DNA of 64,000 nucleotides from a virus. Lineage: Duplodnaviria > Heunggongvirae > Uroviricota > Caudoviricetes. The translations under genes were made by a program, and so were the position numbers. Each line of letters begins with the position of its first letter. Positions within the stretch are counted from its first letter, which is position 1. The notes under the pieces are model-generated. The model was not told where the DNA came from. It saw only the letters and a program-made list of their open reading frames with translations, and ran no database searches. The stretch is from IMG/VR virus record IMGVR_UViG_3300005544_000021. One strand, 5' to 3'. Shown here in pieces: positions 6,568 to 62,028 of this stretch.

Positions 6568-6628
6568 CGTCTATACCTCCTCAATTTCATACCCTTAGAT
6601 TACTAATCGTCTAGACCGGGCCAGCCAT

Positions 6629-6940: not shown

Positions 6941-6949
6941 AGTTGTTTC

Positions 6950-7497: not shown

Positions 7498-7542
7498 ACT
7501 TTCAGTTCCTTTCTTCGTTTCGTTTAGAGGTAGATAATAATC

Positions 7543-7818: not shown

Positions 7819-7851
7819 TTTGAAACTCTCCTATGGTTTCAAGAGCACACC

Positions 7852-20903: not shown

Positions 20904-20978
20904 TGGCAGGAGAGTTGGGACTCGAACCCAATCTAAGAGTTTTGGAGGCTCTGGTGCTAACCCTTACACTACACTCCC
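20904..20978 (-). tRNA. tRNA-Trp (anticodon CCA)
   Basis: Minus-strand cloverleaf: acceptor GGGAGTG/CTCTCCT (one mismatch), D-stem GTGT/GCAC, anticodon loop CTCCAAA with U33, T-arm TTGGG-TTCGAGT-CCCAA, encoded CCA. Confidence 0.5.
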
Positions 20979-21509
20979 TTACACGTCAAAACTTTTCAGA
21001 ATTGAGAATAACTTTTTCATATTTATGAAGAACTCATCCAATTCAGCATCGCTACGTGGAATTTTATTATGGTGCGGTATTTGTAATACTATTTGCATTT
21101 TGGCTTCATTAATCGCCAATCCAAATATTGGTCTCCTTATTATTGCCTCTTGCATGTAAATATATGCAGCGAAGATGTCTAATTTTCGCAAGGCATCAAT
21201 CGCCAACATCTTATTCTTAATGTGTACATCTAACTTAGATGCTGTCATAGTTGTTGTTTTACGCACCTCAAACGAATTATATAAAACAGCTCCCGCCATA
21301 CATCCGGAGCAAAGGCATTTGGGAGCAATGGATTCTAACCAGAAATGCATGTTTATTTTAAACTCTGGATTCTTGCGGACTATATCCAAGTCCTCAATCG
21401 CAATCTTTAAGAGTTGCCAAAGCTTCGTGGTAATCAACACTTTCTCGGCCCGACTTCTAGTCGTCCAGTCAAACTGAATCATGTTCATGATATTACCCCA
21501 AGGTTCCAC
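20979..21509 (-). CDS. hypothetical protein
   Basis: ORF track 176 aa. Confidence 0.3.
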   Translation of the reverse strand: MEPWGNIMNMIQFDWTTRSRAEKVLITTKLWQLLKIAIEDLDIVRKNPEFKINMHFWLESIAPKCLCSGCMAGAVLYNSFEVRKTTTMTASKLDVHIKNKMLAIDALRKLDIFAAYIYMQEAIIRRPIFGLAINEAKMQIVLQIPHHNKIPRSDAELDEFFINMKKLFSILKSFDV

Positions 21510-23221: not shown

Positions 23222-23227
23222 TGTATC

Positions 23228-23407
23228 ATGTCTGATCGAATCATGATTTCTATTTTAATCGGAGGCGGTATACTATTCTTCATTGTTATGATAAGTATAT
23301 TTTCGGACCAAAACGCCAAATGTGAGGCGAAAGGTGGAGAAATGCACCGAGGTCAAGGCATCGTTTTATGTCTACCAAAAGGGACAGCGATTAATCTCAA
23401 AAACTAA
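23228..23407 (+). CDS. 59-aa single-pass membrane protein
   Basis: MSDRIMISILIGGGILFFIVMISIF...; overlaps the helicase stop. Confidence 0.25.
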   Translation: MSDRIMISILIGGGILFFIVMISIFSDQNAKCEAKGGEMHRGQGIVLCLPKGTAINLKN

Positions 23408-23510
23408 AAGAAATTTGGGAAGGGTCAGAAAAGGAGGTTGCCAACTTAGGAAAAATAGAGTAAGGCGAAATGGCAAGTCAACTAAACCCTAGAAAAGCGA
23501 GGACTAAGTT

Positions 23511-23975
23511 ATGCCGACGAATCTTAGAAAAGAGACTATGTACCAGCAGCTTGTGCGAGGCATTCAAGACGAGTTTGCCAGTCAGTGGATACACGATGGT
23601 CTCAAGGTCAAGACCATGGTTGAACGCACGGGACTGGCAGCACAGACTGTCAAACGAAACCTTAACCATGAGTGCCGGTTCCCTTGGATGCAAACCATTC
23701 TAGCTTTGTCTGATGGTCTGGGAGCGGAAATTATCATCAAGGGTAGCAAGGTCACAATCAACGGTCGGGTTGCCAAGCTCCGTAAGGCAGGGGTGAGGCC
23801 AACGATCATCAAGGTTGATGGTAAGCCCGTGTTCAAGGTCTACACCAATAAGGGGAAGATCAAGCCTGCCAAGGCCGCTAAAATGATCAATCCTCAGGAT
23901 GCAAACCAGACGTGGGCAGGAAGGGGACGGAAGCCTAACTGGCTGTTAGCCTTGGAAGCTAAGAAGTCTGCCTAA
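23511..23975 (+). CDS. H-NS-like DNA-binding protein (HTH N-terminal region, H-NS-type C-terminal motif)
   Basis: C-terminus KPAKAAKMINPQDANQTWAGRGRKPNWL matches the H-NS family DNA-binding signature (PAKY.Y.D.NGET.TWTGQGRTP); HTH-like segment KTMVERTGLAAQTVKRNL. Confidence 0.5.
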   Translation: MPTNLRKETMYQQLVRGIQDEFASQWIHDGLKVKTMVERTGLAAQTVKRNLNHECRFPWMQTILALSDGLGAEIIIKGSKVTINGRVAKLRKAGVRPTIIKVDGKPVFKVYTNKGKIKPAKAAKMINPQDANQTWAGRGRKPNWLLALEAKKSA

Positions 23976-41513: not shown

Positions 41514-42952
41514 ATCTTTACCTTGTAGTTTTTCACGGAAAAGTCCTCTTCCAAGTAATATTTCATTCTCTCGGTAAAATGTCTAAGGGTATGATTATAC
41601 CATTTGCCTGAACTCAAATCATCACAAAAATCAAACAACGTGCATTTTTCCTTGGTTTCTCCTTTACGTAAACCTCGCCCAATACTCTGAAGAACTGCAA
41701 TTCTTGATTTGATTGGGGTAGCGAAAATAATATTATGTAAATTTACGATTGAGATTCCTTCGGAAAAACATCCTAGACTGGCGACGATTATTGAATTTTT
41801 TTCCTTATCTACAATCTTACGAATTTCATTCCTTTCTTCGGAATCTATCTTCCCATGAATTAAGTAGACTTTTCTATCCTTGGCGTTCTCTTTAATCAAG
41901 TTATAAAGAGGAATTCCATGGTTCTCTACATAGCGATAAAGAACTAATATATTACCATTCAAGGATAATGTCAAGTTCTTTAGGAAGTCATTTCTGTTTT
42001 TATTCTGTATCAACCAAGCGATTTCATCCTGATATTTAGCTTTCTTAAGTAATTTGGCATCTTCTATTGAGTGTTTTAGAGTAATAGTCTTGATTTTTAA
42101 GTTAGAGATATATCCATCATTCATAAGCTCTTTGGTTGTAATAATTTGCTTGCTTTGCCCGAACAACCCTTCTAGAACCATCTGGTTGACTTCCAAACCA
42201 TCTAGAGTTCCTGTAAAACCAAATTTATAGGGGATATGAGGAGTTTTCTTCATTAGTTCAGTCAGGCTTTTGGCCTTAAATTTGTGAGCTTCGTCTCCAA
42301 CAATAACCTCAAAATTCTTGAACCATTCGGAGGATAATTTATAAGCGGATTGCCATGTAGCTATTACAATATCAGCCCCAATATCCTTTTCCTGTCCCGA
42401 ATATATTTTCTGAATATCTTTTGTGTATCCATAGCTTTCAAAATCAGAAGCCATTTGATGAATTAGGGTTGTATTTGGAACAATAATCAAGGTTCGTTTT
42501 TTTAAATATCTAACTAGAAAATATATAATTAGCGATTTTCCCGAACTTGTCGGGGAAACAAACAAAGCTCTTTTTTTCCTAATACAATGAACAAATGTTT
42601 TGACTTGATAATCTCGGAGTTCAAACTTTCCTGGAATTTTCAGACTATTGATAAAGTCTTGAGATTCAACTAAGGAAAAGTTATTATCAGAAAAGTCTCC
42701 CTCATATTCAATCTCATAATCTCTAGTCTTGGCAAATTCTTCTATCTTTGGTAATAAACCAATATAGATAAGATGGGTTGATAAGCTGAATAGTTTTAGC
42801 TTACCATCCCAGACTCTGGCTTTAAACTTTGGGTGATGTTGATAGTTTTGAGCATAGAAAGAAAAACAATCAGATAATTCTTTGGCTACACTTCTTTCAC
42901 ATTCAACCAGAATATAAACATTATCTACATACCGAATTATTATTTCTGTCAC
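41510..42952 (-). CDS. uvsW: UvsW-like SF2 DNA/RNA helicase
   Basis: LRDYQ, Walker A SPTSSGKS, DEAH-like VIVGDEAH, helicase C-terminal motifs. Confidence 0.8.
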   Translation of the reverse strand: MTEIIIRYVDNVYILVECERSVAKELSDCFSFYAQNYQHHPKFKARVWDGKLKLFSLSTHLIYIGLLPKIEEFAKTRDYEIEYEGDFSDNNFSLVESQDFINSLKIPGKFELRDYQVKTFVHCIRKKRALFVSPTSSGKSLIIYFLVRYLKKRTLIIVPNTTLIHQMASDFESYGYTKDIQKIYSGQEKDIGADIVIATWQSAYKLSSEWFKNFEVIVGDEAHKFKAKSLTELMKKTPHIPYKFGFTGTLDGLEVNQMVLEGLFGQSKQIITTKELMNDGYISNLKIKTITLKHSIEDAKLLKKAKYQDEIAWLIQNKNRNDFLKNLTLSLNGNILVLYRYVENHGIPLYNLIKENAKDRKVYLIHGKIDSEERNEIRKIVDKEKNSIIVASLGCFSEGISIVNLHNIIFATPIKSRIAVLQSIGRGLRKGETKEKCTLFDFCDDLSSGKWYNHTLRHFTERMKYYLEEDFSVKNYKVKI

Positions 42953-43379
42953 CTATATATTTTTCTCCCCGAGTATATTCTCTGGTTAACATGAATCCAG
43001 GTTTAAAATACATCTCCAAGACTGGAATAATCAATTTTGGATTACATTGCCCGCAAGTAAACATATCAACGGCCGCAAATTCTTCTTCAGGCCAAGTATG
43101 TATTGACATGTGTGATTCTGCTAAAATTGCGGTTCCTGTTACTCCAAATCCTTCCCCAAAATCATGAACATGAATATGTAGCATGCAAGCATTAACTGCC
43201 TGAATACAATTCAGCATAGCTTCCTTGACCAATTTTGCATTATCTAAATTTTTAGCCGAATATATATCAACATGAACATGTTTACCTGCATATTTGATAT
43301 TACCATCTTCAATAAAATTTCCATAAGTTTGGGCAGTTATATTAGCAGCTTCCTGGAACTTTTCGTCTTGATATGTCAT
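42921..43379 (-). CDS. speD: S-adenosylmethionine decarboxylase (pyruvoyl-dependent, SpeH/SpeD class)
   Basis: AESHMSIHTWPEE and VDMFTCG signatures. Confidence 0.8.
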   Translation of the reverse strand: MTYQDEKFQEAANITAQTYGNFIEDGNIKYAGKHVHVDIYSAKNLDNAKLVKEAMLNCIQAVNACMLHIHVHDFGEGFGVTGTAILAESHMSIHTWPEEEFAAVDMFTCGQCNPKLIIPVLEMYFKPGFMLTREYTRGEKYIGDRNNNSVCR

Positions 43380-45116: not shown

Positions 45117-45365
45117 ATGGAAGTCAAAGAACTGACAGCCAAATGGGAACCAACACGGGCGAGGTATACCTTTAATCTAGGCAACCGAGCCTTCCACGCT
45201 AAACTAGATCACAAGATAACCCTGATTTGCGGAACCCGCAAGTTTCAGGGTATCATTCCATTTAAGGCTATGGATCATTTGGCGGGTCCATATATTCACA
45301 TCAGATCAAAGAACACAGGGGAACCAACGGGACAGTTTGCAAAGTACTTTCGGGAAATCACTTAG
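45117..45365 (+). CDS. small protein, tRNA-island paralog A
   Basis: GIIPFKAMDHLAGPYIHIRSKNTGEPTGQFAKYF shared with 45975..46271. Confidence 0.35.
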   Translation: MEVKELTAKWEPTRARYTFNLGNRAFHAKLDHKITLICGTRKFQGIIPFKAMDHLAGPYIHIRSKNTGEPTGQFAKYFREIT

Positions 45366-45438
45366 TCCTGTAGCTCAACGGTAGAGCCGTGTCCTCATAA
45401 GACATTGGTTGTAGGTTCGAATCCTACCAGGACTACCA
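45364..45438 (+). tRNA. tRNA-Met (anticodon CAT)
   Basis: Perfect acceptor stem AGTCCTG/CAGGACT, D-arm GCTC-AACGGTA-GAGC, anticodon loop CTCATAA, T-arm GTAGG-TTCGAAT-CCTAC, encoded CCA. Confidence 0.8.
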
Positions 45439-45878: not shown

Positions 45879-45955
45879 CCCGATTTAGTGTTAGTGGTTT
45901 AGCACGTTTGGTTGTGGACCAGGAAGGCCAAGTTCGAATCTTGGGATCGGGACCA
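45879..45955 (+). tRNA. tRNA-His (anticodon GTG)
   Basis: Acceptor CCCGATT/GATCGGG, D-arm GTGT/GCAC, anticodon loop TTGTGGA, T-arm CCAAG-TTCGAAT-CTTGG, encoded CCA. Confidence 0.6.
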
Positions 45956-46755: not shown

Positions 46756-48315
46756 TTAACGCCATTGAATTTTAACTCTTCCCCCTTGCCCGACTGCTAT
46801 TGGGTCTTGACTATGTTGGGTTGCTGCCCCTCCAAGTCCAGCCGTTAATGTCATGGTTGATCCAATTGTTATTTGAGTATTGCTGGTAAATATTTTTTTG
46901 GCATAAGCCCCGCCGCCTCCCCCGCCGCCAAAACTTCCATTATTCCAAATCGGATTTCCTCCTCCTCCTGTTCCTGGAGAACTGTCAAGAAAAATTGTCG
47001 TATCGTCAAGAAATGGTGGGGGATTTGGAACGGGGGTTAATAGACGCCAATAACCTCCTCCCCCAACCAAATTATTTGCTGAGTTTTGAATCCCGCTTGC
47101 CCCTCCAATATCTAAGTATCCATTTGCCCCATTAAAATTGATATCTCCTCCCGAAGCAATTCCCCCATCTCCCGGAGCATTAGCATGTCCCCCCTTACCC
47201 CCTCCCGCAGTAATTGTAGTATTACCACATACAAAAGATGATTGCTGACCATTTGCTCCTGCATCAGGGTTCCAAGCCCCTTGTCCCCCTCCCCCCCAGA
47301 CTTCTACAATAAATGTATGGGCAAACCATGGAACTTGATAAGAAATAACTTGAGCAAATTGTACTCCATCTATTTGATAATAACGATAAAAATCTGGAGT
47401 ATTAACTCCAATACTTACATTCGCAACATTTAGATAATTTGGCCAACCAGCCTTAATAACTGCAATATCTCCAACTGGAAGACTTGTTCCCGTAAACGTT
47501 ACATTGGCAAGGGAATTTACGGATAGAACTTTATGACTCAAATAACCAAGATTGGTATCAAGAGAAATTTTTGTCTGGGCGGATGGATAAATTAAGTTAT
47601 TTGAATATGTAACTTTGGCTACAATATTAATGACTGCATCTATATCCCCAGTATTACTTGCCGTAAGATTAATAGAAGGGAGATAAGTGACAAAGGTATT
47701 TTGAACATTTGAAGTTGGAGTTAAGGTTTTGTTTGAATAATAGCCATAATTTGAATTATAATGAAATACTACGGCTGAGTTTGTTAATCCAGAATTATCT
47801 AATCCAACAGCTACTTGAACCAGAGGAGTATAATTGAAATCTACCACGGGAGTTGCGGCCAAAGACTTATCAAGAATAAATTTGTTGGGGATACTAAGAA
47901 AGCCCTCTTCGGTACTTAAAATTTCCCAGAACTGTAATCCTTTAACTCCATCTGTATCAAAACTTGCATTAGCAGAAAATTGATAGTAGGCACTTTCCCG
48001 AAGGAAGAAAAGAGAGGTAGCATTTACTCCCCCGATTTGAGACCCCTTAAACGTTTTTACATTTAGAAGGGTATTCACGGTGTTTGAGAGAAAAACTGTG
48101 TTTGTCAGGTTCGCAATATTGAGAAAATCTGAGGCTTCCTGATCAGAAAAAATATCACTATGATCATCCAGGGCATAAAAGTTTTCATATAAAGCATCTT
48201 CTATATCTTGGGAAACTTTGAAAAAACTGAGAACATAAATTTTGCCTGAACTTTCGTCGGTATAAAACCAGGGCAAAACTTTATAAGGAATAGTGTTGGC
48301 AAGAAAATAAGACAT
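46756..48315 (-). CDS. tail-fibre/baseplate-associated structural protein with Gly-rich C-terminal domain
   Basis: 519 aa; N-terminal S/T/N-rich beta-type sequence; C-terminal runs GGGGQGAWNPDAGANG...GGGGNPIWNNGSFGGGGGGGAY typical of phage glycine-rich fibre domains. Confidence 0.45.
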   Translation of the reverse strand: MSYFLANTIPYKVLPWFYTDESSGKIYVLSFFKVSQDIEDALYENFYALDDHSDIFSDQEASDFLNIANLTNTVFLSNTVNTLLNVKTFKGSQIGGVNATSLFFLRESAYYQFSANASFDTDGVKGLQFWEILSTEEGFLSIPNKFILDKSLAATPVVDFNYTPLVQVAVGLDNSGLTNSAVVFHYNSNYGYYSNKTLTPTSNVQNTFVTYLPSINLTASNTGDIDAVINIVAKVTYSNNLIYPSAQTKISLDTNLGYLSHKVLSVNSLANVTFTGTSLPVGDIAVIKAGWPNYLNVANVSIGVNTPDFYRYYQIDGVQFAQVISYQVPWFAHTFIVEVWGGGGQGAWNPDAGANGQQSSFVCGNTTITAGGGKGGHANAPGDGGIASGGDINFNGANGYLDIGGASGIQNSANNLVGGGGYWRLLTPVPNPPPFLDDTTIFLDSSPGTGGGGNPIWNNGSFGGGGGGGAYAKKIFTSNTQITIGSTMTLTAGLGGAATQHSQDPIAVGQGGRVKIQWR

Positions 48316-48842
48316 TATAGACTATCAGCTTTGATTGTGTAGTTTGTATACTTGAACACAGATGAACATGTAATATAGTTTACATCATTGTCCGTGGAAC
48401 CCATTTGAAATTCTGATAAGCTGATTGGGAAAGCATCTTTTATAATACATTCTAGAAACGGATTATGTGAGGAATCAAGGATCAAGACTGAGATATCAGA
48501 TTTTAATCCCGTACCTGTCCAAAGAGGTTCATTTTCCAGGGATGCATATTGATCCCAATCTTCGGGAAATCCAAGTTTCATTAGCCAAGTATAAATCTCT
48601 TTCCAGTTTTGCATTTTTTCATCAACCTTAAATGTCACGGAAAGTTCCTCAAATGTAACTATATCTCCTGAATATGGAATCGTGGAAAATGGGTTTGGAA
48701 AATTTGCGGGGGGTATTGATACTCCCGGAATATTAATTCTCTGGGTGAAAAAATTAACCGAAGGTAGGTTGAGAATTTTGAATTTGTAATTTAATGGGGA
48801 GAGAAAATTCAAAGTCTCAGGTACTTGGCTTATTGCCGACAT
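48315..48842 (-). CDS. hypothetical virion structural protein
   Basis: ORF-track start is a TTG; probable ATG at 48842 with AAGGA RBS; adjacent to the fibre gene. Confidence 0.3.
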   Translation of the reverse strand: MSAISQVPETLNFLSPLNYKFKILNLPSVNFFTQRINIPGVSIPPANFPNPFSTIPYSGDIVTFEELSVTFKVDEKMQNWKEIYTWLMKLGFPEDWDQYASLENEPLWTGTGLKSDISVLILDSSHNPFLECIIKDAFPISLSEFQMGSTDNDVNYITCSSVFKYTNYTIKADSL

Positions 48843-48881
48843 ATAAATCCTTCTTGACAAGAAATTGATGGGAAGCTAAGG

Positions 48882-48889
48882 TATTTATG
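48882..48889 (-). promoter_or_regulatory. late-promoter-like motif CATAAATA (T4 late consensus TATAAATA)
   Basis: Minus strand, about 40 nt upstream of the structural gene ATG at 48842. Confidence 0.25.
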
Positions 48890-48917
48890 CTGAACCCCTT
48901 AAAAGGAGGAATGTCAA

Positions 48918-49283
48918 ATGAACCTTGTTGAGGCTTTGCAAAAAGCAAAAGCTTTTATTGCCAACGAAAACAATTGGTTGCAAGGGGATAGATATGGAGA
49001 TAGTAGAGATGGTAAAGGTAAAGGTTTTTGTGCCCTAGGAGCCCTAGATAAAGCGTTGTATAACGGAACCAATATACGAAGTGATGTGTATGCTATTCTA
49101 GCCAAAACAGCAAAGTTAACTTCCGAAAGTCCAAAAGACCCCTATAATAGTGATTACAGGGGTTATGATTTATATGATAATGAAAGCAGAATTGCTCATT
49201 ATAATAATATTTCCGATCATCAAACAGTGATGAAATGGTTTGATGAAGCAATTAAGGATGCTGAAAGGTTTGTGTCCGCTTAG
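48918..49283 (+). CDS. ENW-QG / FCALGAL-motif family protein, paralog 1
   Basis: NENNWLQGDRYG...GFCALGALDKA. Confidence 0.35.
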   Translation: MNLVEALQKAKAFIANENNWLQGDRYGDSRDGKGKGFCALGALDKALYNGTNIRSDVYAILAKTAKLTSESPKDPYNSDYRGYDLYDNESRIAHYNNISDHQTVMKWFDEAIKDAERFVSA

Positions 49284-49308
49284 GGCAATTTTCTCATGGA
49301 GAAACAGT

Positions 49309-49668
49309 ATGTCTGATCGTAAAATCAGTGCGGTAACAAAACATCTCATGCTAACTCGTGAGATTTTGGCAAAGCCTGAACATTGGTGTAAGGGTTGGTT
49401 TATTCTTGATAAGAACGGTGGATATCTTTATTATGTTGATGATGTTGAAGCTTATTCGTTTTGTTTAGCGGGGGCCTTGAGAAAGGCTTCTTGGAGTTTT
49501 CCCGCTGACCCCATGAACGATGGGGTTCTGGATCAATACTTTAAAACTCTGAAGATATTGAATAATATGTTTCCAACGCTTAATATCGCTGAATTTAATG
49601 ATCACCGAAACACAACTCACGCCAAGATTTTACAATTTTTAGATGAGGCAATTGCAGCTTCTATGTAA
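49309..49668 (+). CDS. MSDRKIS-family protein, paralog 2
   Basis: Start at ATG 49309 with GGAGAAACAGT RBS; MSDRKISAVTKHLMLTREILAKPEHWCKGWF...SFCLAGALRKA...FNDHRNTTHAKILQFLDEAI. Confidence 0.35.
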   Translation: MSDRKISAVTKHLMLTREILAKPEHWCKGWFILDKNGGYLYYVDDVEAYSFCLAGALRKASWSFPADPMNDGVLDQYFKTLKILNNMFPTLNIAEFNDHRNTTHAKILQFLDEAIAASM

Positions 49669-49683
49669 CCGGGAGGAATCACC

Positions 49684-49911
49684 ATGGCAAAGTATCAGGT
49701 TAAGATAACTCGGGATATTTCGGCTCAACAAACTCGGGTAATCTATATCCAGGCTGATAGTCATGAGCAGGCCACAAATATGCTCAATGACATGGATTTA
49801 GAAAATGAGGAAGAAAATTATCCCGGAACCGAATGGAAAACAGACTCGGAGTCCATTGAGGCGGTCTCCGAGCCTGAGGTTAACGGACAGCTTGAACGTT
49901 ATAGACCCTGA
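49684..49911 (+). CDS. hypothetical acidic protein
   Basis: ORF track 75 aa. Confidence 0.3.
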   Translation: MAKYQVKITRDISAQQTRVIYIQADSHEQATNMLNDMDLENEEENYPGTEWKTDSESIEAVSEPEVNGQLERYRP

Positions 49912-50519
49912 TTCATCTTCAACCCTGCATCCCGAGCCGCATTTAGTTCGGCGGCATTATTATCGTGTCCCCCAATATCGGGATGTAGGGACTTCATTTT
50001 GGTTCGCCATGCATCTTTGATGGTATCCTCGCTGGCGAATTCGTTTACCCCCAGGACATGCCACCATTGTTTTGGGGCAGGTAGGGCTTGCAATTCCAGC
50101 CCGCTAAAGGCTCGTTCCATGGCTTCTGAGCAACCCCAATAGTCTATTTTGTAGAGCCCCATTACCGTGGCGGTTAAAGCTTTCAGATTGTCTCGGGGGC
50201 GATTCCACTTATCGCATGCGAGAATGATTTCCTTGTCCTTTCGCACAAAGGATACCGCCACCCCCGGAGAATCTATTCCCTGACCACTCCAGTAATAGAC
50301 ATCCTTGGCCTTGCCTTCCAGGTTTGGATCATCGGCCTTTAGGTTAGTGGATATGATTAGGCCAAAGTGTGGGGTTCGGGTTAGGCTTAGTAGAGTACGC
50401 CGCATTTCCTGTTGAGCCATTTTCCAGGTGCCCTGAAACTTTCCCTTGCGGCGGACAGCGTCAGGCGTGCGTTTCCAGCCCTTGGGCCAATCCAAGGGAT
50501 ACTCTCGGATGCGTTCCAT
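49899..50519 (-). CDS. J-domain (DnaJ-like) protein with N-terminal domain of unknown function
   Basis: C-terminal WWHVLGVNEFASEDTIKDAWRTKMKSLHPDIGG carries the HPD tripeptide; probable start at ATG 50519 (AGGAGAA RBS); GC-richer than the phage backbone. Confidence 0.55.
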   Translation of the reverse strand: MERIREYPLDWPKGWKRTPDAVRRKGKFQGTWKMAQQEMRRTLLSLTRTPHFGLIISTNLKADDPNLEGKAKDVYYWSGQGIDSPGVAVSFVRKDKEIILACDKWNRPRDNLKALTATVMGLYKIDYWGCSEAMERAFSGLELQALPAPKQWWHVLGVNEFASEDTIKDAWRTKMKSLHPDIGGHDNNAAELNAARDAGLKMNQGL

Positions 50520-50529
50520 TTGCGTTCTC

Positions 50530-50787
50530 CTAATGTTTGGTTCTGGTTGGAAAGGCGGTATTGAAAAGAATAACATTTTTTCGGAAATTGTTTATGAATT
50601 CCGCATATTCTTCGGGGGTAAATATTTTCTCGGCTTCAATTTCTGCTAGGGAATTGATTTCTTGGTCTGTTACCTCTACATGGGTATCATATAGATGAGT
50701 GTTGAAAAACTTATTCGCTTCCTCTGCTGTATTGAATGGCCCAATACAATGCGGAGGTTGATAATCATCAACCCAAAAGATCAGCAT
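50530..50787 (-). CDS. hypothetical protein
   Basis: ORF track 85 aa. Confidence 0.3.
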   Translation of the reverse strand: MLIFWVDDYQPPHCIGPFNTAEEANKFFNTHLYDTHVEVTDQEINSLAEIEAEKIFTPEEYAEFINNFRKNVILFNTAFPTRTKH

Positions 50788-50938
50788 TGGAGTTCTCCTT
50801 CTGTTCCTCTTTGTTCATGTTGAACATCTTGCATGATAATCATCATACGTTCAAAGTCAAGTAACATAAACGTGATTGGACATGTTTAACGTCCGTATGC
50901 TAGGCTGATATGAAGTGAGGCAAAGGTGGAGGAAAGTT

Positions 50939-51142
50939 ATGTCAAAAGATAATCTAACACCCGAGCAAGAAGAAGCTGTTGAATTTCTATTATCTGATGG
51001 CATGACTGCCGAGGAAATTATTTTAGGTATTGCGTTTGCGAAATTTGGAATTGAAACTCAAGAACAACTTAATGAAATCTGGAATAGGTATGATGGAGAT
51101 TATGAAGCCATTTTGACTTTCTTGAACAAGAAGCAAAATTAA
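50939..51142 (+). CDS. small acidic hypothetical protein
   Basis: ATG at 50939 preceded by GGTGGAGGAAAG; the ORF-track GTG start at 50915 is less likely. Confidence 0.3.
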   Translation: MSKDNLTPEQEEAVEFLLSDGMTAEEIILGIAFAKFGIETQEQLNEIWNRYDGDYEAILTFLNKKQN

Positions 51143-51143
51143 C

Positions 51144-52232
51144 ATGGCTAAATCTCCAACTCTTCTAGACGATCTTTATCAGAACACCTTCAAGGTGGAT
51201 CGTCTGAAATATTTGCGGCCGTTGATCTTATCGGCTCGCAAATTCGTCCTGGATACGGAGATGTCTTCGTTCTTGGCTGATTTAGCTATTCAGGGTTTCA
51301 AAGGCACAAAATCATCTTCTTATGTATATCCAGCAGGATCACCTGTTGCAGATATAGAAACAATAGTAGATTTGGCATTTGAAGAGTCTCGTAAGAGAAC
51401 AGAAAAATCTCGTCTGGGTTTGATTGAGAATATGCGGCACTCGGCCAGACTTCCGTTTCCTGTTACCTGGATTGAGTTTGATCATCATGCCTTATTCAAG
51501 AGACGAAAGGAGCTTGCCCCTGAACAAGTAACATCTGAGCCTGAACAAACTTGTAAGAACGAAGGCTGGTTACTTGTTCAACATCCAGGATTGGATACAG
51601 TGTTCCATTCAACCTTGGTGTTTGGGGATATAATAAATCAAGATCGTTATATGCCTGGTTTACCAGCCCCTTATTCTTGGGCATGGTCATGTGATGATGA
51701 AACACATTTACCTTATGCTCCCGTGGCTCAGGTTTCGTCTGAGAATCATTGCAGGATTCCTGTTGGAATTTCAGACTACAATACTCCATTCGTGAAGATT
51801 ATCTATCGTCCGGGATTAGAGAAGAAATATCAAGACCCCCATGAAATTGCGGGGTTTGATCATATGTTTCTGAAAGAGTTTGTTGGTGATTTACGTTATA
51901 CGTGGGCCTTGCTTGCTACCTTGAATGATCTTCCGGTGGAAAACAAGATTGTGGAAACATCCAAGGGATTTTTGGGCCGAGGTAAGTTTCGCAAGTTCCT
52001 CACCCATTCGCTGATTACTCTGAAGGTTCCAACTAAGGAATCTCGGGTAAAACTGGCTCGTAAGTTAATTGCTTTGTCTAGACGGCGTCGCCATGAGGTT
52101 AGGGGACATTTCCGCAAGGATTGGCGTAACCCTCTGGAAAAGATTTGGATACCAGCCCATGAACGGGGGGATGCAACCCTTGGGTTTGTGACACATTCTT
52201 ATAAGGTGGAAAGAAACAAGGAAAACGCTTAA
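51144..52232 (+). CDS. 362-aa protein of unknown function (GC-richer island)
   Basis: No recognisable motif by eye; basic C-terminus RRRRHEVRGHFRKDWRNP...IPAHERGD. Confidence 0.35.
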   Translation: MAKSPTLLDDLYQNTFKVDRLKYLRPLILSARKFVLDTEMSSFLADLAIQGFKGTKSSSYVYPAGSPVADIETIVDLAFEESRKRTEKSRLGLIENMRHSARLPFPVTWIEFDHHALFKRRKELAPEQVTSEPEQTCKNEGWLLVQHPGLDTVFHSTLVFGDIINQDRYMPGLPAPYSWAWSCDDETHLPYAPVAQVSSENHCRIPVGISDYNTPFVKIIYRPGLEKKYQDPHEIAGFDHMFLKEFVGDLRYTWALLATLNDLPVENKIVETSKGFLGRGKFRKFLTHSLITLKVPTKESRVKLARKLIALSRRRRHEVRGHFRKDWRNPLEKIWIPAHERGDATLGFVTHSYKVERNKENA

Positions 52233-52389
52233 TCATCTTTGGAGGATTTCAAATGCGTATTGTAGAAAAATTTAATCATTGCCAACATGTGGCTGATTAT
52301 TACTGGCTGAAATACACGGGTAACAACATAACTTCAACGTATTTTATGTACTTTAGAATCTGGAGAAAATACAATTTAATGGCTGGAAA

Positions 52390-52566
52390 TTAATCGTCGG
52401 AATATACCATAAGTCCGAGCCCGAAACCTATTAGGCTTCCACTTATAACCGATGCTATATAAGGAGCTACAAAGGCATTTGGATACACGGGTAAGAATAA
52501 ACTTGCCAAACCTAAGATAAACATAGCGGTTCCAACACAGATGCAACCGATTCTTAGGTTTGACAT
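52390..52566 (-). CDS. 58-aa two-helix membrane protein
   Basis: MSNLRIGCICVGTAMFILGLASLFLPVYPNAFVAPYIASVISGSLIGFGLGLMVY. Confidence 0.3.
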   Translation of the reverse strand: MSNLRIGCICVGTAMFILGLASLFLPVYPNAFVAPYIASVISGSLIGFGLGLMVYSDD

Positions 52567-52579
52567 TTGGTTTCTCTCT

Positions 52580-52840
52580 TTACCTCAACGCTTTCAGCCG
52601 AGTAGTTAAATCCTGAAAGTTGTGAGGAAATTGATTTGCTGCCTCACTCCAACCAGCAGGTATTGAAACTGCCTCATTATTATCCCTCCAATAACGATAC
52701 CCAATTGAAGTTACCTGTAATCCTTTTGATGTTAAATATTGGGCGATAGCACAATTTCCACAGTTGAACTGGTAGTCTTGGTTTCCTTGTTTTGCCGTCC
52801 ATTCCGCAAAGGCTTCTGTCGTGAAGATATTCTTGGACAT
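52580..52840 (-). CDS. MSKNIF-family small protein, paralog 2
   Basis: See 7543..7818. Confidence 0.4.
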   Translation of the reverse strand: MSKNIFTTEAFAEWTAKQGNQDYQFNCGNCAIAQYLTSKGLQVTSIGYRYWRDNNEAVSIPAGWSEAANQFPHNFQDLTTRLKALR

Positions 52841-52857
52841 TTGGGAAAACTCCTCTC

Positions 52858-53400
52858 TTAGTCTTTGGGGATGCCTAGGAAGAAAATCGTACCACTAACG
52901 TCCCGGAGCTTCAAGATGAAAATCGGATGGTTCTCATCATCGCCTCGCACACTTTGTTCTATCGCCTGAAAATATCCATCATTATAAAACCCGCATGGTA
53001 TATCGCCCCCATGGGCTTTACGCATGCTATCAATTGCCTGTAAAGGACTTTCCCCCTCGTATAACTTTTTGGCAAATGATATTGCAAAAGCTGCGGGATT
53101 ATCCCGACTAACTAAGCTTACCTTACAGACGGCATTCTCATTACCCTTGAAACGCAAACGGGAATATTCCTCACTCACAGGACGGAAATGATAACGATCC
53201 GGAGGCAGTATCTTTTGGGATGGCATAACAATTTCCCGATAAATCGGCCATTTATGCCAAGGCCGAGTTTGCAATTGCCGAGGCGGATGGTATCCAGGGG
53301 GCAATTCAGAAGGGGAAGGACGACGCCCTTGTGTATCTTGGGCCAGAGATGGTAGGCTGAAGCTAAGCAAGGCTAAGGCAAAAGCTGCTGTCTTACGCAT
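52858..53400 (-). CDS. secreted protein of unknown function
   Basis: Probable start at ATG 53400 (GGAGGA RBS); signal peptide MRKTAAFALALLSFSLPSLAQ; Pro-rich N-terminal region. Confidence 0.4.
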   Translation of the reverse strand: MRKTAAFALALLSFSLPSLAQDTQGRRPSPSELPPGYHPPRQLQTRPWHKWPIYREIVMPSQKILPPDRYHFRPVSEEYSRLRFKGNENAVCKVSLVSRDNPAAFAISFAKKLYEGESPLQAIDSMRKAHGGDIPCGFYNDGYFQAIEQSVRGDDENHPIFILKLRDVSGTIFFLGIPKD

Positions 53401-53477
53401 GGCATCCTCCATTGGTTCCCTTGTAGGGACAACATCCCAGTCAAGCTTACGATTGTGTCAAAACAAAGGAGAGAAAA

Positions 53478-53789
53478 ATGTCAGACAGAAAAATCAGTGA
53501 AGATACCAAAAAACTTATGAGAGCCCGTAAGCTGATTGAGCAACCAGAAAATTGGACTCAAGGAATATTTGCCCGAACTAAAGAAGGTATGAAAATAAAC
53601 CCGCAGAGTTATTTGGCGTATTCATTTTGTATAATAGGGGCTTTGCAAAAGGTAAGATTTGATAACTTAGATATTTTGCATAATATACATGTAATTATAA
53701 ACTTCAATGATATGTCAACACACGATGAAGTTTTGCGGTTTTTGGACAGAGCGATTTTAAAGTCCATAACGCAGGATCAGAAATCATGA
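53478..53789 (+). CDS. MSDRKIS-family protein, paralog 3
   Basis: MSDRKISEDTKKLMRARKLIEQPENWTQGIF...SFCIIGALQKV...FNDMSTHDEVLRFLDRAI. Confidence 0.35.
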   Translation: MSDRKISEDTKKLMRARKLIEQPENWTQGIFARTKEGMKINPQSYLAYSFCIIGALQKVRFDNLDILHNIHVIINFNDMSTHDEVLRFLDRAILKSITQDQKS

Positions 53790-54004
53790 CTCAAGCAAAT
53801 GAAGTGTCCTTACGGGACTGGTTTGCGAGCCAAGTATATGCTCAAGCCTATGAAGCCGCCAGACATATAACTGAGGGAGATTTAAACAGGATGTTTGGTT
53901 CCAACAAAATTGATATGCGTCTGGAAGCTATTGCGGCGGCTTTAGCTTATCGTTATGCCGATGAATTAATGAAACGACGAGCAACCGAAGGAGAATCGTC
54001 ATGA
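53786..54004 (+). CDS. hypothetical protein
   Basis: ORF track 72 aa, ATGA-overlapped operon. Confidence 0.3.
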   Translation: MTQANEVSLRDWFASQVYAQAYEAARHITEGDLNRMFGSNKIDMRLEAIAAALAYRYADELMKRRATEGESS

Positions 54005-54225
54005 AGAAAACTTTTGATGTGATCCTGGAACGGGAAATCATGATTACGCAAACCAAAAAAATAAGGGTTAATGCTTATAATGAGGACGAGGCTCAAGATA
54101 TTGCATTCAGGAGAACGAATATGAATGAGGGGGCAAAACATCCTATCCGTTGGAAACGGGGTTGGAAAACAAAAGAGGCGGACTTGGAGACAATTACTAC
54201 GAATTTTGTGGAGATAAAGAAATGA
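54001..54225 (+). CDS. hypothetical protein
   Basis: ORF track 74 aa. Confidence 0.3.
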   Translation: MKKTFDVILEREIMITQTKKIRVNAYNEDEAQDIAFRRTNMNEGAKHPIRWKRGWKTKEADLETITTNFVEIKK

Positions 54226-54422
54226 ATAAACATTGCGTTGCTATTGTTGATGGGGGAACTTTAATTGGCGAGAACGGAACTTTGGATATCACGGGAATAG
54301 ATGATGTTGAGATTAGAATACGTTCGGATGGAAAGGTGATTTGGGTTAATGGCCCAGATTGTAAAGTTCGTATTTGTTCAATCCGGGGGGTGGTAAATGT
54401 GGTTGATGAGCGAAACAACTGA
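54222..54422 (+). CDS. hypothetical protein (start at MNKHC)
   Basis: ATGA overlap with upstream stop. Confidence 0.3.
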   Translation: MNKHCVAIVDGGTLIGENGTLDITGIDDVEIRIRSDGKVIWVNGPDCKVRICSIRGVVNVVDERNN

Positions 54423-54585
54423 GGAGGCTGTCCGTGGGCGAAGTGTTCTTCTGGCTTTTAGTCGTGCTGTTCGCCCTGGTGCTGATGTACCGACTCGGCG
54501 TGACCATCCGCTCATTTATGGATACGAACGACGCATTCCGTCACTGGAGTGCAGTTAACAAACAGAAAAGAATGGAAAACAAACG

Positions 54586-54828
54586 ATGAAAACTTACTAT
54601 TCAGGAATGACATTGGCAGAAATGTTAATGTTAATTAGTGCTGTTAAGGCATCAGCAGACGATCTTGTCAAATATGAAACATGGATTAATGATAGACCAG
54701 CATTACCAGCCAGAGAACTTGCTATCAATATGGTAAGAGCGGAAACTAAAAAATACAGAGAACTACAATTAAAGCTTATGGAAATATTGGACAAGGAAGA
54801 AACAAAGATGATGGAGATAAAACGATGA
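54586..54828 (+). CDS. hypothetical protein
   Basis: ORF track 80 aa. Confidence 0.3.
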   Translation: MKTYYSGMTLAEMLMLISAVKASADDLVKYETWINDRPALPARELAINMVRAETKKYRELQLKLMEILDKEETKMMEIKR

Positions 54829-55058
54829 AAAAGTCTGAGTATATGGAAGCCATGTTTGGGGAAGAATGGCGCAAATGTGTGCGGGAAGGACGATGTTGGA
54901 TTATACAAAACACTATCTTTAATCCATTTGATGGTCAGGGATTAAATTTGATTTGTCAGGTACATGAAGAGGAGTTTAATATTCCGGTAAAACGTGGAGA
55001 GTGGAATGTACCAATACCTTCTATTTGCCCCAAGGGGGAGAAGAATAAGCTTATCTAA
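54825..55058 (+). CDS. hypothetical Cys-containing protein
   Basis: ORF track 77 aa. Confidence 0.3.
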   Translation: MKKSEYMEAMFGEEWRKCVREGRCWIIQNTIFNPFDGQGLNLICQVHEEEFNIPVKRGEWNVPIPSICPKGEKNKLI

Positions 55059-55068
55059 TAATAAAAAA

Positions 55069-55084
55069 GGGAGCCGAAGCTCCC
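55069..55084. terminator. bidirectional rho-independent terminator
   Basis: GGGAGC-cgaa-GCTCCC hairpin; on the minus strand it is followed by TTTTTTATTATT, directly downstream of the capsid gene. Confidence 0.6.
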
Positions 55085-55117
55085 TAATTTACGACACTAT
55101 ATAGAATGTCTTTCTGA

Positions 55118-56467
55118 TTACATCAGGTTTTGAACCAGGAACTTCCTGTAATACACGTTACTATCAACGTGAATGGTTCCAGAACCTTTTGTTAATCCCT
55201 CGGCAAATGGGTTGGCTGTCATGCCATAGCGAGTCTTAAACCCAAGGCGAGGAGTAAATGAATCGGGACGAACCGCATTCATCAACTGGAGAGGAACGTA
55301 TGGGCAGTAGTAAATACCCGCATCCCAGGCACTTGCCCCTTTATAACCGACCGTGATATAATGACCCCCAGAAGCATATGGATCAATATAACACTTAATA
55401 CGCCCATTTAGAACTCCGATAAAGGTACTACCTGTATCATCTGGATTGAGGGAGTTTTGTAGGGCTGGAGTATAATCTAATTGCTGAGCCGCTTGAAGGG
55501 CTGAAGCAACATCGGAAGTCATGATAGCGATATTACCGCGTCCCCGACGTGTAGCCTTAGCCAGAGCATTACATTCACGCTCTAGTTGGAAATGAATACC
55601 TTTCCACTTCTCTACTGACCAACGACCATTAGAATCGGTATCAAGATCAAAGAAACCAGCAGTCGTGGTGTTTTCCTGACAACCAATTTGGGCCGCAAGG
55701 TTAACAGTTCTCACAACTTCCCGATTAATTTCCGCAAGGATTTCAGTTGAAAGAATATTGATCAATTCTGCCCGAGCGTCCATACCATGAACAGCCTTTA
55801 GGTCTTGAGCAAGTTCAAGAGTATATTCAGCCGCCAGAGCCCGAGACTTTGCAGTTACGGTATTCTTTTCAATGCTGAAGCCCATCTGAGCAAAATCAGA
55901 GTTTGAATCCGTACCCAAAGCTTCGGCTTGGGCTGTGCTCATTCCACCGCCATAGTTATAGATACCAGTGGCTGCAAGGTTTGAAATTGCTGAAGAGTTA
56001 CCAGGAAGGGAACCGACATGTTTCAAGCCAAGTGTGTTTGCCCCTGAGAGTACTGAGGAAAACATGGTGTTGACTTCGTTATAGAAGGTTTCCGAACCAG
56101 TCTGGTTTGAATAGCGGGAACGCATGGCGAAAATCAAACCTGTTGGACCAGTCATTGGCTGCACGCCAACTAGATCATAAGCAATCAGATTTGGGGCCGA
56201 ACGCCGAACCATATTGATTAGAATTGGATCAAAGGTATCAATACCTCCTGATCCAGCAGTTGAGCTTGAAGCACCCATAAAGTTTACAGGGATAGCAGCT
56301 TCCAAGAGGTCACGGGGAATAGATTCCCGATTTAGCTTTAGTTCTCTCTCAGTATTCTCCATCAGAATGGCAGTAACAGTCTCCCGATGAGAATCTTTAA
56401 TCTTGGCATGTGAGGGATGCTCTAAAAGTCCGCCCCACTTGTCCTTTAGTTCTTCAGATAAAAACAT
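55118..56467 (-). CDS. 23: major capsid protein (T4 gp23 homolog)
   Basis: FDPILINMVRRSAPNLIAYDLVGVQPMTGPTGLIFAMRSRY parallels the conserved gp23 segment; strong terminator downstream. Confidence 0.85.
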   Translation of the reverse strand: MFLSEELKDKWGGLLEHPSHAKIKDSHRETVTAILMENTERELKLNRESIPRDLLEAAIPVNFMGASSSTAGSGGIDTFDPILINMVRRSAPNLIAYDLVGVQPMTGPTGLIFAMRSRYSNQTGSETFYNEVNTMFSSVLSGANTLGLKHVGSLPGNSSAISNLAATGIYNYGGGMSTAQAEALGTDSNSDFAQMGFSIEKNTVTAKSRALAAEYTLELAQDLKAVHGMDARAELINILSTEILAEINREVVRTVNLAAQIGCQENTTTAGFFDLDTDSNGRWSVEKWKGIHFQLERECNALAKATRRGRGNIAIMTSDVASALQAAQQLDYTPALQNSLNPDDTGSTFIGVLNGRIKCYIDPYASGGHYITVGYKGASAWDAGIYYCPYVPLQLMNAVRPDSFTPRLGFKTRYGMTANPFAEGLTKGSGTIHVDSNVYYRKFLVQNLM

Positions 56468-57583: not shown

Positions 57584-58441
57584 TTATTTACTAGGCCAGC
57601 GCCCTTGTTTAGCAGTAGTTTTTTGACCCTGTAAACCTAAACCTTTGGCTTTTTTGAGCATATTTGAAGCCGCTTTACCAGTCATATTAACGTGGGTAAC
57701 ACTACGGTCATGATTAATAATCGTTTTTTGTCCTCCCCCTAATGGGTTTAGCTTTCTATGAACCAGAAACTGGTTGTTATCTTCTTCGGGTAACATTAAA
57801 CCCAAGTAATAGCGGAATAACTCATACTTCTTTTCAAGTAGCTCACGCTTAGATATCTTTTTCATAGCCTTAGCAAGGTCTTCCACCTTGTTTTCCATAT
57901 AAGAACCCCGAGCGGCATCATATACCCAATCCACGCCTTCCATGATACCATTAACCCAACAATTTAAGCCTGAAGGATCAGTAACTGCATCTACCGTAAC
58001 AAGTTTGAAGTCATTTTGAACTTCCTGGAGACCTTGGGAATTGGGCTTTACGGAGCCTAAACCTCGGGTACTCATTCCAAACCGACCCCCCGATTCAATA
58101 ATGGAACGCATAATTTTGCCCTGGCCTTCATCTAAAACTACAGCCTTTCCAATTACATTATTACCATCCCAATCTAGAGACGTAATTCTGTGTGAGATTC
58201 TTTCCTCATTTATCTTTGGTCCCTGAGGGTGTCCCCATTCTCCATAGGCTGTTTTGTTATTGATCTTATCCTTGACAAAACCTTCAACCACAGGTTCCAT
58301 AATTCCCTTAGAATAAATTCTATTATTCCGATTAGGAGTATTAACGCTAATGTAAGGTCCAGCGACATAGAGGAACTTTTTTCCGTCCTTTTCTTCGGTG
58401 AGGTATTGAACGTCTTGGGATATTTCGGATATTAACTTCAT
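57584..58441 (-). CDS. 21: prohead core protease (T4 gp21 homolog)
   Basis: AYGEWGHPQGP...GMSTRGLGS...FKLVTVDAVTDPS parallels T4 gp21 (ALGELNHPPRA...GVSSRGLGS...FKLTVGVDAVWGPS). Confidence 0.75.
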   Translation of the reverse strand: MKLISEISQDVQYLTEEKDGKKFLYVAGPYISVNTPNRNNRIYSKGIMEPVVEGFVKDKINNKTAYGEWGHPQGPKINEERISHRITSLDWDGNNVIGKAVVLDEGQGKIMRSIIESGGRFGMSTRGLGSVKPNSQGLQEVQNDFKLVTVDAVTDPSGLNCWVNGIMEGVDWVYDAARGSYMENKVEDLAKAMKKISKRELLEKKYELFRYYLGLMLPEEDNNQFLVHRKLNPLGGGQKTIINHDRSVTHVNMTGKAASNMLKKAKGLGLQGQKTTAKQGRWPSK

Positions 58442-60994: not shown

Positions 60995-61276
60995 TTACTT
61001 CTTTACTCCATATAAGTCTTTACAAGTTATTCCAGGTTTTAACCCTCCGGGACGCATTAAATCAAATCCCAGAACATAGGCTGGTATAATTATTGTTGGG
61101 AAGAATATAGCCCCGATAATAACTCCCGGATAATTTAAATGATAGTTAACTGTTCCATCAGCATTCATAATATTCAACATCCCATAACCAGGATAATAAG
61201 AACCACAGATTGTTTTAGCTTCCACGCTCGTAAATGCGAAAATTGAAATTAGAAATGCTAGGATAAATTTATTCAT
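60995..61276 (-). CDS. small secreted/membrane protein encoded directly downstream of the C1 peptidase
   Basis: ATGA overlap with peptidase stop; signal peptide MNKFILAFLISIFAFTSVEA; C-terminal hydrophobic segment; two Cys. Confidence 0.35.
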   Translation of the reverse strand: MNKFILAFLISIFAFTSVEAKTICGSYYPGYGMLNIMNADGTVNYHLNYPGVIIGAIFFPTIIIPAYVLGFDLMRPGGLKPGITCKDLYGVKK

Positions 61277-62028
61277 ATAACTTGTTGAATACTCCAGAAA
61301 TCGTCGCAAAGATTTGCGTTTGTTAAGTAAGAATATGGCATATAATAAATCCCATGATCCCCAACCGATGTTCCCCAAGAATTACGAATCATAAATTCCT
61401 TGGTGAAATCATTATATCCAACACAACAAATTGCATGTCCGCCAAGCATCTTTTCATGTACCTGAGGCATCGGAACATGACCCCCTTTATCTCCCTGATA
61501 AAAACTATCATAGATTGCCGCCCCGAAAACAAACAGTTCTCCATTATCCAAACAGCTTCTTAAGACATCAAGGTTGGTATTATCCAGGCGATAATAATTC
61601 AGAGCTTTGTATTTCTTGGCATTCTGGTAACAAGCCGCTGGAGGTTTGAAGGCAAAATATTCAGGATGATAAGCCCAAAGATGTTCATCACAATATCCCT
61701 GAGTGGCTACTGATTTAATGCCATCTCGTATTTCAGCCCCAGCATCTGAGGTAATTGTGCCTTCCATCCAACGCTCATTATAATAAATGAATAGACGGGA
61801 GGGAGTGAAGTCTTGAATTTTTTGTTGAATACGATTATATTCTAGAATGGCGGCAATAGCATGGGCTGTGCAAGAACCAAGTTCCCCTTGATCCCAAATA
61901 GGGGGACAATTATGGCGTAAATCAACAACCTTATCTTGACGAGCCGCAAGGTGCATAAGTTTATAGTTATGATACCATAAGTCTCGTTGATCAGGTTTGT
62001 CTGGTTTCCATCCTAGTTTCCGATTCAT
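61273..62028 (-). CDS. papain-like cysteine peptidase (C1A family), no pro-domain
   Basis: Catalytic Gln-Cys spacing as in papain (DQGELGSC; Q six residues before C), His in GGHAICCVGY, Asn in RNSWG; begins like a mature papain N-terminus. Confidence 0.7.
   Translation of the reverse strand: MNRKLGWKPDKPDQRDLWYHNYKLMHLAARQDKVVDLRHNCPPIWDQGELGSCTAHAIAAILEYNRIQQKIQDFTPSRLFIYYNERWMEGTITSDAGAEIRDGIKSVATQGYCDEHLWAYHPEYFAFKPPAACYQNAKKYKALNYYRLDNTNLDVLRSCLDNGELFVFGAAIYDSFYQGDKGGHVPMPQVHEKMLGGHAICCVGYNDFTKEFMIRNSWGTSVGDHGIYYMPYSYLTNANLCDDFWSIQQVI

Follow-up and report, generated by a model that had tools for sequence, protein, structure and literature searches.

Do two GC-richer patches in the genome of a T4-like phage carry copies of the same cassette? 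We addressed this question in a 64,000-nucleotide stretch of the IMG/VR record IMGVR_UViG_3300005544_000021 (hereafter the window), which is part of a 181.8-kb metagenomic contig (ENA ERZ27264386 k141_5712269). A sequence-only reading had proposed that a GC-rich module, comprising a secreted protein and a small protein of a family designated MSKNIF, occurs at two distant loci, that it was horizontally acquired or duplicated, and that it might act on the host envelope or periplasm. The open reading frames (ORFs) on which that proposal rested are present at the coordinates given. The explanation we favor, and consider probable if not assured, is nonetheless a different one: the loci are two separate accessory-gene patches in variable slots of the phage genome, an old-duplicated MSKNIF gene is the only element they have in common, and there is no duplicated cassette. 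Each patch would be a mosaic of independently acquired small genes, some of them compositionally foreign (a J-domain gene, a 59-amino-acid gene and, in part, a gene for a 180-amino-acid protein predicted to be exported). One patch would follow the gp41 helicase gene; the other would be flanked by the major capsid gene on one side and by the tail-completion/UvsY/UvsW genes on the other.

The comparison turns on the following features (window coordinates; aa, amino acids; nt, nucleotides):

6388-8069, minus strand: accessory stretch of locus 1, holding in order a 73-aa ORF, MSKNIF1, the His/Gly protein, an 82-aa ORF, a 77-aa ORF and a 59-aa ORF
7198-7497, minus strand: His/Gly-repeat protein, 99 aa, predicted to be exported, starting 45 nt downstream of MSKNIF1
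7543-7818, minus strand: MSKNIF paralog 1 (MSKNIF1), 91 aa, two genes downstream of the gp41-type helicase gene (8070-9470)
48861-55117, mixed strands: accessory island of locus 2, 6.2 kb, between a tail-tube-like gene (48315-48860) and the major capsid gene (55118-56467)
52390-52566, minus strand: 58-aa protein predicted to have two transmembrane helices; its gene begins 13 nt past the MSKNIF2 stop
52580-52840, minus strand: MSKNIF paralog 2 (MSKNIF2), 86 aa, a small alpha/beta protein, presumably cytoplasmic
52858-53400, minus strand: putative exported protein of 180 aa (184 aa if read from 53412), with a predicted signal peptide, a Pro-rich linker and a domain of about 135 aa containing two Cys

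The two MSKNIF proteins are clearly related. In a pairwise alignment they are 47% identical (E 9e-26), so the similarity claimed for them is significant. Against a hidden Markov model (HMM) of MSKNIF alignment A3 both score at E values of 1e-30 to 1e-33 and qualify as members of the family, which we define by a length of 80-120 aa, profile similarity over the full length, and an invariant Cys where helix 2 begins. Judged from sequence, they are true paralogs of a duplicated gene, and the earlier suggestion of duplication stands to this extent.

The duplication does not reach beyond this gene. DNA similarity between the loci consists of the MSKNIF ORF, about 270 bp, together with about 14 nt of the ribosome-binding-site region, and it fades out where the ORF ends; the one repeat that the loci share is an 82-nt segment of 72% identity at the 5' end of the ORF. 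The exported proteins next to the two genes are unrelated (E 38). Gene order is also opposite: read along the coding strand, locus 1 runs from the 73-aa ORF through MSKNIF1 to the His/Gly exported protein, and locus 2 runs, head to tail, from the 180-aa exported protein through MSKNIF2 to the 58-aa membrane protein. Because the DNA similarity is confined to MSKNIF, the exported proteins are unrelated and the gene orders differ, we regard the duplicated unit as a single gene and abandon the idea of a cassette in two copies. The proposal that MSKNIF sits directly downstream of a secreted protein is correct at locus 2, where 17 nt separate the 180-aa gene from MSKNIF2, but not at locus 1, where MSKNIF1 is upstream of the His/Gly protein. 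What does recur is that each MSKNIF gene of the window is followed, 13-45 nt further on, by a gene for a membrane or exported protein. The J-domain gene and a gene for a 362-aa protein, also noted at the second locus, proved to be separate transcription units on other strands, with nothing tying them to MSKNIF.

Three of the proteins that flank MSKNIF look envelope-targeted when read from their sequences, two by Sec-type signal peptides and one by its two transmembrane helices. The 180-aa protein begins with the putative signal peptide MRKTAAFALALLSFSLPSLA/QD and the His/Gly protein with MKNWKIALAFAGALAFSSPVAA/QHHG; the signal-peptide features (a positively charged n-region, a hydrophobic core and a small-x-small cleavage site) were read by eye and agree with a hydropathy heuristic. 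In the His/Gly protein, 12-nt periodic repeats encoding HSGG/HGGH units are followed by a Trp/Gly/Cys-rich tail, which suggests a periplasmic metal-binding protein. The 58-aa protein reaches a maximum Kyte-Doolittle hydropathy of 2.34 over 17 residues. No signal peptide was found in MSKNIF. An action on the envelope is therefore plausible for the exported partners only, since MSKNIF lacks a signal peptide and most of its distant relatives lack an exported neighbor.

Searches with these partners returned little. The His/Gly protein has no homolog in GenBank phages by tblastn. The 180-aa protein matched nothing among families or Protein Data Bank (PDB) sequences, nor, by tblastn, in GenBank phages; its only homolog is P0101, in contig L010, with 73% identity over 141 aa. 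The description of this protein as Pro-rich applies to a real stretch, but one that is just a 20-residue linker absent from that homolog. Its AlphaFold2 (AF2) model, built on the two-sequence alignment, is unusable (predicted local distance difference test, pLDDT, 48.9).

Contig L010 dates the duplication. This 3.4-kb phage fragment (GC 0.49), which carries part of an ATP-dependent DNA ligase gene, encodes P0101, a 160-aa signal-peptide protein, followed by two MSKNIF genes in tandem, P0002 and then P0003. In a neighbor-joining tree P0002 pairs with MSKNIF1 (59% identity) and P0003 with MSKNIF2 (53% identity). Since L010 holds both types, each pairing with one window paralog, the duplication must be old and predate the split of the lineages. 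It was probably tandem at first; in the window phage the two types now lie 45 kb apart. The remaining L010 genes have no homolog in the window, and no counterpart of the 58-aa membrane protein was seen in L010. Both genomes keep a gene of the 180-aa type next to MSKNIF, with spacers of 12-17 nt. As the same pair recurs in a contig otherwise unrelated to the window, its sequence and arrangement identify the exported protein and MSKNIF as a conserved unit, one that has been transferred between phages whose backbones are unrelated.

We then considered base composition, the property that had set the two loci apart. The two segments have a GC content of 0.436 and 0.433 against 0.381 for the window overall, at the 97th and 93rd percentile of same-length windows, so they are GC-richer than the backbone as claimed, but the MSKNIF genes are at backbone GC3 (GC content at third codon positions) and the excess belongs to particular genes. 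Relative to 27 long backbone genes (GC3 0.319 +/- 0.039), the values are:

59-aa gene (6388-6567): GC3 0.583, z +6.7, the most foreign of its neighborhood
J-domain gene: GC3 0.531, z +5.4, the most foreign of its island
75-aa gene: GC3 z +3.3
180-aa exported protein gene: GC3 0.42, z +2.6
362-aa gene: GC3 z +1.8
MSKNIF2 gene: GC3 0.379, z +1.5
58-aa membrane protein gene: GC3 z +0.9
MSKNIF1 gene: GC3 0.315, z -0.1

In the His/Gly gene the enrichment is limited to codon positions 1 and 2 (0.65 and 0.62, with GC3 0.38) and is due to its Gly and His content, and the DUF6197 genes of the island do not stand out as foreign by GC3. GC enrichment at both loci is thus patchy and gene-specific, not cassette-wide. 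Horizontal acquisition fits those genes with foreign GC3 and the transferable 180-aa/MSKNIF pair; it receives no such support from the composition of the MSKNIF genes, the 58-aa gene or the DUF6197 genes. MSKNIF1 is fully ameliorated to backbone GC3, and the 180-aa gene and MSKNIF2 still lean toward an L010-like composition.

Stretches just as GC-rich occur elsewhere in the window, for example at 22.1-24.2 kb. Two plus-strand genes at 21710-23975, one for a UvrD-like helicase of 503 aa and one for a 154-aa protein whose C-terminal domain is of H-NS type, exceed all others of the window in GC content (GC3 0.51 and 0.60, z +4.9 and +7.1) and are oriented opposite to their neighbors; they were probably inserted recently from a foreign source. 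That a phage encodes an H-NS-like protein hints that its host is a proteobacterium.

If both patches occupy variable slots, their content should differ between T4-like phages, and it does. In Synechococcus phage DSL-LC03 the region of locus 2 is compact, with the major capsid gene, one gene for a 227-aa hypothetical protein, the tail-tube-like gene, UvsY and a helicase. The equivalent slot of Caulobacter phage Cr30 is about 5.5 kb long and holds a homing endonuclease gene, about 13 unrelated small ORFs and a tRNA gene. Where the window has the locus-1 genes, after gp41, DSL-LC03 instead carries MazG and small ORFs unrelated to them. Because slot content differs among the T4-like phages compared, we assign both loci to hyperplastic slots of the T4-like architecture, that is, variable slots between conserved core genes. 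The concept of hyperplastic regions, or a plastic periphery, in T4-superfamily genomes is said to go back to Comeau and colleagues in 2007. Like those regions, the loci of the window are islands between core modules, with small ORFans in mixed orientation, variable content and partly foreign composition. Unlike them, they hold a set of genes unique to the window: MSKNIF, the 180-aa protein, the 362-aa ORFan, three DUF6197 genes and a phrog_9210 J-domain gene. What had looked like a duplicated foreign cassette is, on this account, the usual accessory-gene mosaic in variable slots of a T4-like genome.

A word-indexed search with MSKNIF returned the query protein alone, and an exhaustive HMMER search with both paralogs as queries returned 96 cluster representatives at E ≤ 1e-3. 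Two of these (P0021 and P0038) are long repetitive proteins that we treated as spurious; almost all of the rest are 80-120 aa long. Conservation spans the full length of the family. In the 69-sequence family alignment Cys30 (MSKNIF2 numbering) is invariant (69/69), ten further residues (W14, Y23, Y25, Q34, Y35, G40, W51, P61, T74 and R81) are each kept in at least 80% of members, and the C-terminal helix reads TFGALAxRLR. AF2 run on this alignment gave a very confident model (pLDDT 94.5; predicted template modeling score, pTM, 0.85), with helices at residues 8-18, 31-38, 64-69 and 75-84 and a beta hairpin at 50-59; the invariant Cys sits at the N-terminal end of the second helix. Foldseek found no structural neighbor of the model in the PDB (E at least 4). 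A fold search of BFVD returned one unnamed viral protein of 99 aa, A0A7S5R9V9 (E 8e-4, TM 0.75), which is uninformative and probably itself a MSKNIF member.

No member of the family has a meaningful match in Pfam, PHROGs, NCBIfam or PADLOC, and none has one among PDB sequences. Searching 50,697 GenBank phage records by tblastn with MSKNIF2, P0018 and P0053 found no member, and none of 185,579 GTDB genomes contained the family motif in the form used. IMG/VR gave no close members, and distant ones at two loci. Across these collections the MSKNIF family as such appears undescribed and unannotated, with no known family that matches it. Here, then, is an unannotated family of small phage proteins with a confident predicted fold that lacks a solved counterpart, and with an invariant Cys.

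Several candidate identities were rejected. A relation to DUF6197 (PF19698) was prompted by co-occurrence and a common W..QG...CA motif. MSKNIF does resemble DUF6197 in size and in a W..QG...C-A-hydrophobic motif, DUF6197 itself having a Cys-Ala...Gly-Ala-Leu helix motif, but in profile-profile comparison the two are not homologous at a detectable level: none of the 69 members matches PF19698, and hhalign gave a probability of 0.3% (E 0.21) with the 69-sequence profile and 0.1% with a two-sequence profile. Lpp-LpqN (PF10738) scored 15.5 and 16.8 bits where 22.4 are required, and matched only the window paralogs, 2 of the 69 members. A weak Pfam match to MgrB was below threshold and not common to the family. 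A thioredoxin-like CxxC redox protein fails on the motif, present in only 10 of the 69 members, and on the fold, which does not match.

Where the distant members lie offers a clue to what MSKNIF may do. On three contigs (L004, L005 and L006) the homolog sits between a cI-like helix-turn-helix (HTH) repressor and genes for Gp157, Rad52 and NinB, with P22-type portal, terminase and integrase genes also present on these contigs. On L007 it adjoins Erf, and the contig also has genes for an S24 repressor, ParB and an integrase; on L008 it lies between an S24 repressor and Dam; and on L018 it is near HTH repressors, HNH genes, and recombinase-like and NinB-like genes, labels that for this contig come from reading translations, with no domain search. 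Arrays of small same-strand genes surround the homolog on L011, L012, L015 and L023. At L015 1115-3010, the homolog P0007 overlaps the start of a 156-aa signal-peptide protein by 4 nt and stands five genes upstream of a Gad2-like (PF26128) gene in the same array. Seven contigs (L004, L007, L008, L011, L012, L018 and L023) have neither an exported immediate neighbor nor a homolog of the 180-aa protein. The distant members thus lie in early, accessory regions of temperate phages.

The pL region of phage lambda holds the accessory genes kil, gam, ral, sieB and cIII, and phage accessory genes with a promoter and a terminator of their own are known as morons. The setting of the distant MSKNIF members, in same-strand arrays between cI-like or S24 repressors and Erf, Rad52, Gp157 and NinB genes, is like that of lambdoid early operons. 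The differences are that MSKNIF has no sequence or fold similarity to characterized members of such operons, and that the window genes belong to a lytic T4-like genome. From these temperate-phage relatives, near repressor and recombination genes, we infer that MSKNIF may be a non-essential host-interaction or accessory factor. It could work in the cytoplasm, binding a partner or ligand in a pocket of conserved aromatic residues that surrounds Cys30, where helix 2 begins. The three genes at locus 2 for the 180-aa protein, MSKNIF2 and the 58-aa protein may form one operon, and in the window lineage MSKNIF probably works with proteins that are exported or sit in the membrane, which would suggest a part in superinfection exclusion or envelope remodeling. 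T4 Imm and Sp are superinfection-exclusion proteins, and the analogy, a functional one, is that small proteins of membrane or periplasmic type occur in non-core regions, here beside MSKNIF genes. It ends there: no homology was found, the window proteins match no PHROG, and MSKNIF, as a putative cytoplasmic protein, has no counterpart in Imm or Sp.

How well does a pair of accessory patches, linked only by MSKNIF, withstand scrutiny? Five points weigh against it or the roles sketched above. The window phage lacks a close relative in IMG/VR, JGI metagenome contigs and GenBank phages, so insertion or absence of the islands could be judged only against distant T4-like phages. The JGI search returned the window phage itself and nothing else, and the shorter contigs L002, L003, L009 and L016, from other samples, are this same phage (99.99-100% identity) and not usable for comparison. 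The linkage of exported protein and MSKNIF is backed by a single independent genome, L010. By manual count across the family, 5 of 17 immediate neighbors are exported or membrane proteins against a background of 13%, which is not significant (p=0.06, or 0.12 when L010 is dropped as non-independent). No gene of the exported-protein/MSKNIF/membrane-protein unit has a function assignable by homology. Finally, sigma-70 promoter scans and terminator scans found fewer sites than in shuffled sequence, and no consensus sites, as a moron would have, flank the three-gene unit of locus 2.

The competing explanations fare less well. A horizontally acquired, GC-rich cassette of a secreted and a MSKNIF protein, placed at two loci by duplication and with the envelope or periplasm of the host as its site of action, would account for the elevated GC, the MSKNIF paralog and the adjoining exported protein at each locus; we nevertheless think it quite improbable, given unrelated exported proteins in opposite order relative to MSKNIF, DNA similarity that stops at the ORF ends, MSKNIF genes at backbone GC3, and J-domain and 362-aa genes with other strands and other histories. 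The 180-aa protein and MSKNIF might instead form an obligate, mobile two-component module, an exported effector with a cytoplasmic partner (a chaperone, an export or maturation factor, an immunity protein or a regulator), for which the His/Gly and 58-aa membrane proteins would be alternative partners of MSKNIF. Their tight adjacency in two otherwise unrelated backbones speaks for this, as do the 4-nt overlap on L015 and the membrane or exported gene that follows each window paralog so closely. Set against it are the distant members, most of which have no exported neighbor and none a 180-aa homolog, the non-significant enrichment of such neighbors, and the disparity between two known members of the 180-aa family and 96 MSKNIF matches. 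We hold it to be possible but doubtful.

MSKNIF might also serve host takeover or anti-defense independently of its neighbors, for instance as an inhibitor or small-molecule sponge. It is small and compact, with many conserved aromatics and an Arg; its distant members occupy early accessory arrays between repressor and recombination genes, one of them with a Gad2-like gene; and a single phage keeps two diverged paralogs. This reading is unlikely in our estimate: MSKNIF has no structural similarity to solved anti-defense proteins or other PDB entries, the Gad2-like gene is five genes away and at one locus only, and no member was found in the GenBank phage records. To the notion that the ORFs are chance or decaying sequences without function, we give practically no credit. 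They are short and belong to no annotated family, and no relatives were found in cultured phages; against this, 96 representatives conserved over their full length, the invariant Cys with about ten near-invariant positions, the AF2 confidence and a conserved ribosome-binding-site region contradict it. A bolder possibility, to which we assign only a slim chance, is that MSKNIF founds a new class of fold and function, either a Cys-dependent cytoplasmic factor in an inside-outside module with exported or membrane proteins or a new anti-defense protein, spread between unrelated backbones and specialized into two paralogs. Nothing so far points to an unusual mechanism. The very confident predicted fold, the invariant Cys and the pairing with an exported protein in two unrelated phages make the family a reasonable low-cost candidate for accessory-function screens (anti-defense, superinfection exclusion, host takeover).

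We turn to the remaining genes of the two patches. By the gene table, the small genes of the island at 48861-55117 number about 17 and fall into five or more blocks on alternating strands, and the units below alternate in strand and are separate from one another:

48918-49283, 49309-49668 and 53478-53789, plus strand: three diverged paralogs of DUF6197 (PF19698), identified by Pfam matches and bracketing the island
49899-50519, minus strand: J-domain protein, 206 aa, with an N-terminal phrog_9210 domain and a C-terminal J domain
50530-50787, minus strand: 85-aa ORF, co-oriented with the J-domain gene and upstream of it, with no family match
50939-52232, plus strand: unit of a 67-aa ORF (50939-51142) and the 362-aa ORFan (51144-52232)

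The J domain noted at this locus was borne out. The protein scores 28.9 bits against PF00226 (cut-off 27.8; 1.2e-6), over profile positions 2-41 of 63 only (helices I-II), and has the HPD tripeptide of DnaJ J domains ('...KSLHPDIGGH...'). It matches phrog_9210 over its full length (4.4e-35). Its most likely start is Met20 of a 225-aa ORF that runs to 50576, as called on L002, which gives a protein of 206 aa. Viruses of Synechococcus, Microcystis, Caulobacter, Erythrobacter and haloarchaea encode homologs; these carry a chaperone annotation and adjoin recombination genes, lying next to Bet in phage Ssp-JY39. Rki of phage RB43 is a phage J-domain co-chaperone mimic. The window protein resembles such mimics in its HPD J domain and full-length phrog_9210 match and differs in that its gene is a unit of its own, unrelated to MSKNIF, and in its uncharacterized N-terminal domain of about 165 aa. 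For the 362-aa protein, searches of Pfam, PHROGs, NCBIfam, PADLOC, PDB sequences, GenBank phages, plasmids, IMG/VR and GTDB genomes all returned nothing. A DUF6197 gene and a MSKNIF homolog also occur together on the temperate-phage contig L004.

At locus 1, a terminator-like hairpin at 6369-6348 closes the stretch. A GC-rich intergenic segment of 140 nt (6568-6706), 5' of the 59-aa gene, was considered as a structured RNA and rejected (folding z +1.0, no Rfam match).

Beyond the two loci, the phage encodes T4-like proteins: a Gp23-type major capsid protein, a T4 scaffold, a prohead protease, UvsY, UvsW, UvsX and the gp41-type helicase. Between UvsY and UvsW is a gene for an S-adenosylmethionine decarboxylase (AdoMet_dc, speD-like; 42921-43379, minus strand); we take it to be an auxiliary metabolic gene typical of cyanophage-type T4-like phages. 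Three tRNA genes (20904-20980, minus strand; 45364-45438 and 45879-45955, plus strand; Trp-CCA, Met-CAT and His-GTG) were found, two of them within a plus-strand accessory block between UvsY and the tail genes. The head-morphogenesis cluster includes a gene for a papain-family cysteine protease (61273-62028, minus strand; Peptidase_C1, E 1.7e-8), separate from the gp21-type prohead protease gene at 57584-58441. The T4 late-promoter octamer TATAAATA occurs once in the whole window (6369-6376, minus strand), against 7.2 +/- 2.5 copies expected from shuffles; this sole copy is just upstream of an FkbM-type methyltransferase gene and abuts the terminator-like hairpin. The late-promoter consensus of the window phage probably differs from the T4 octamer.

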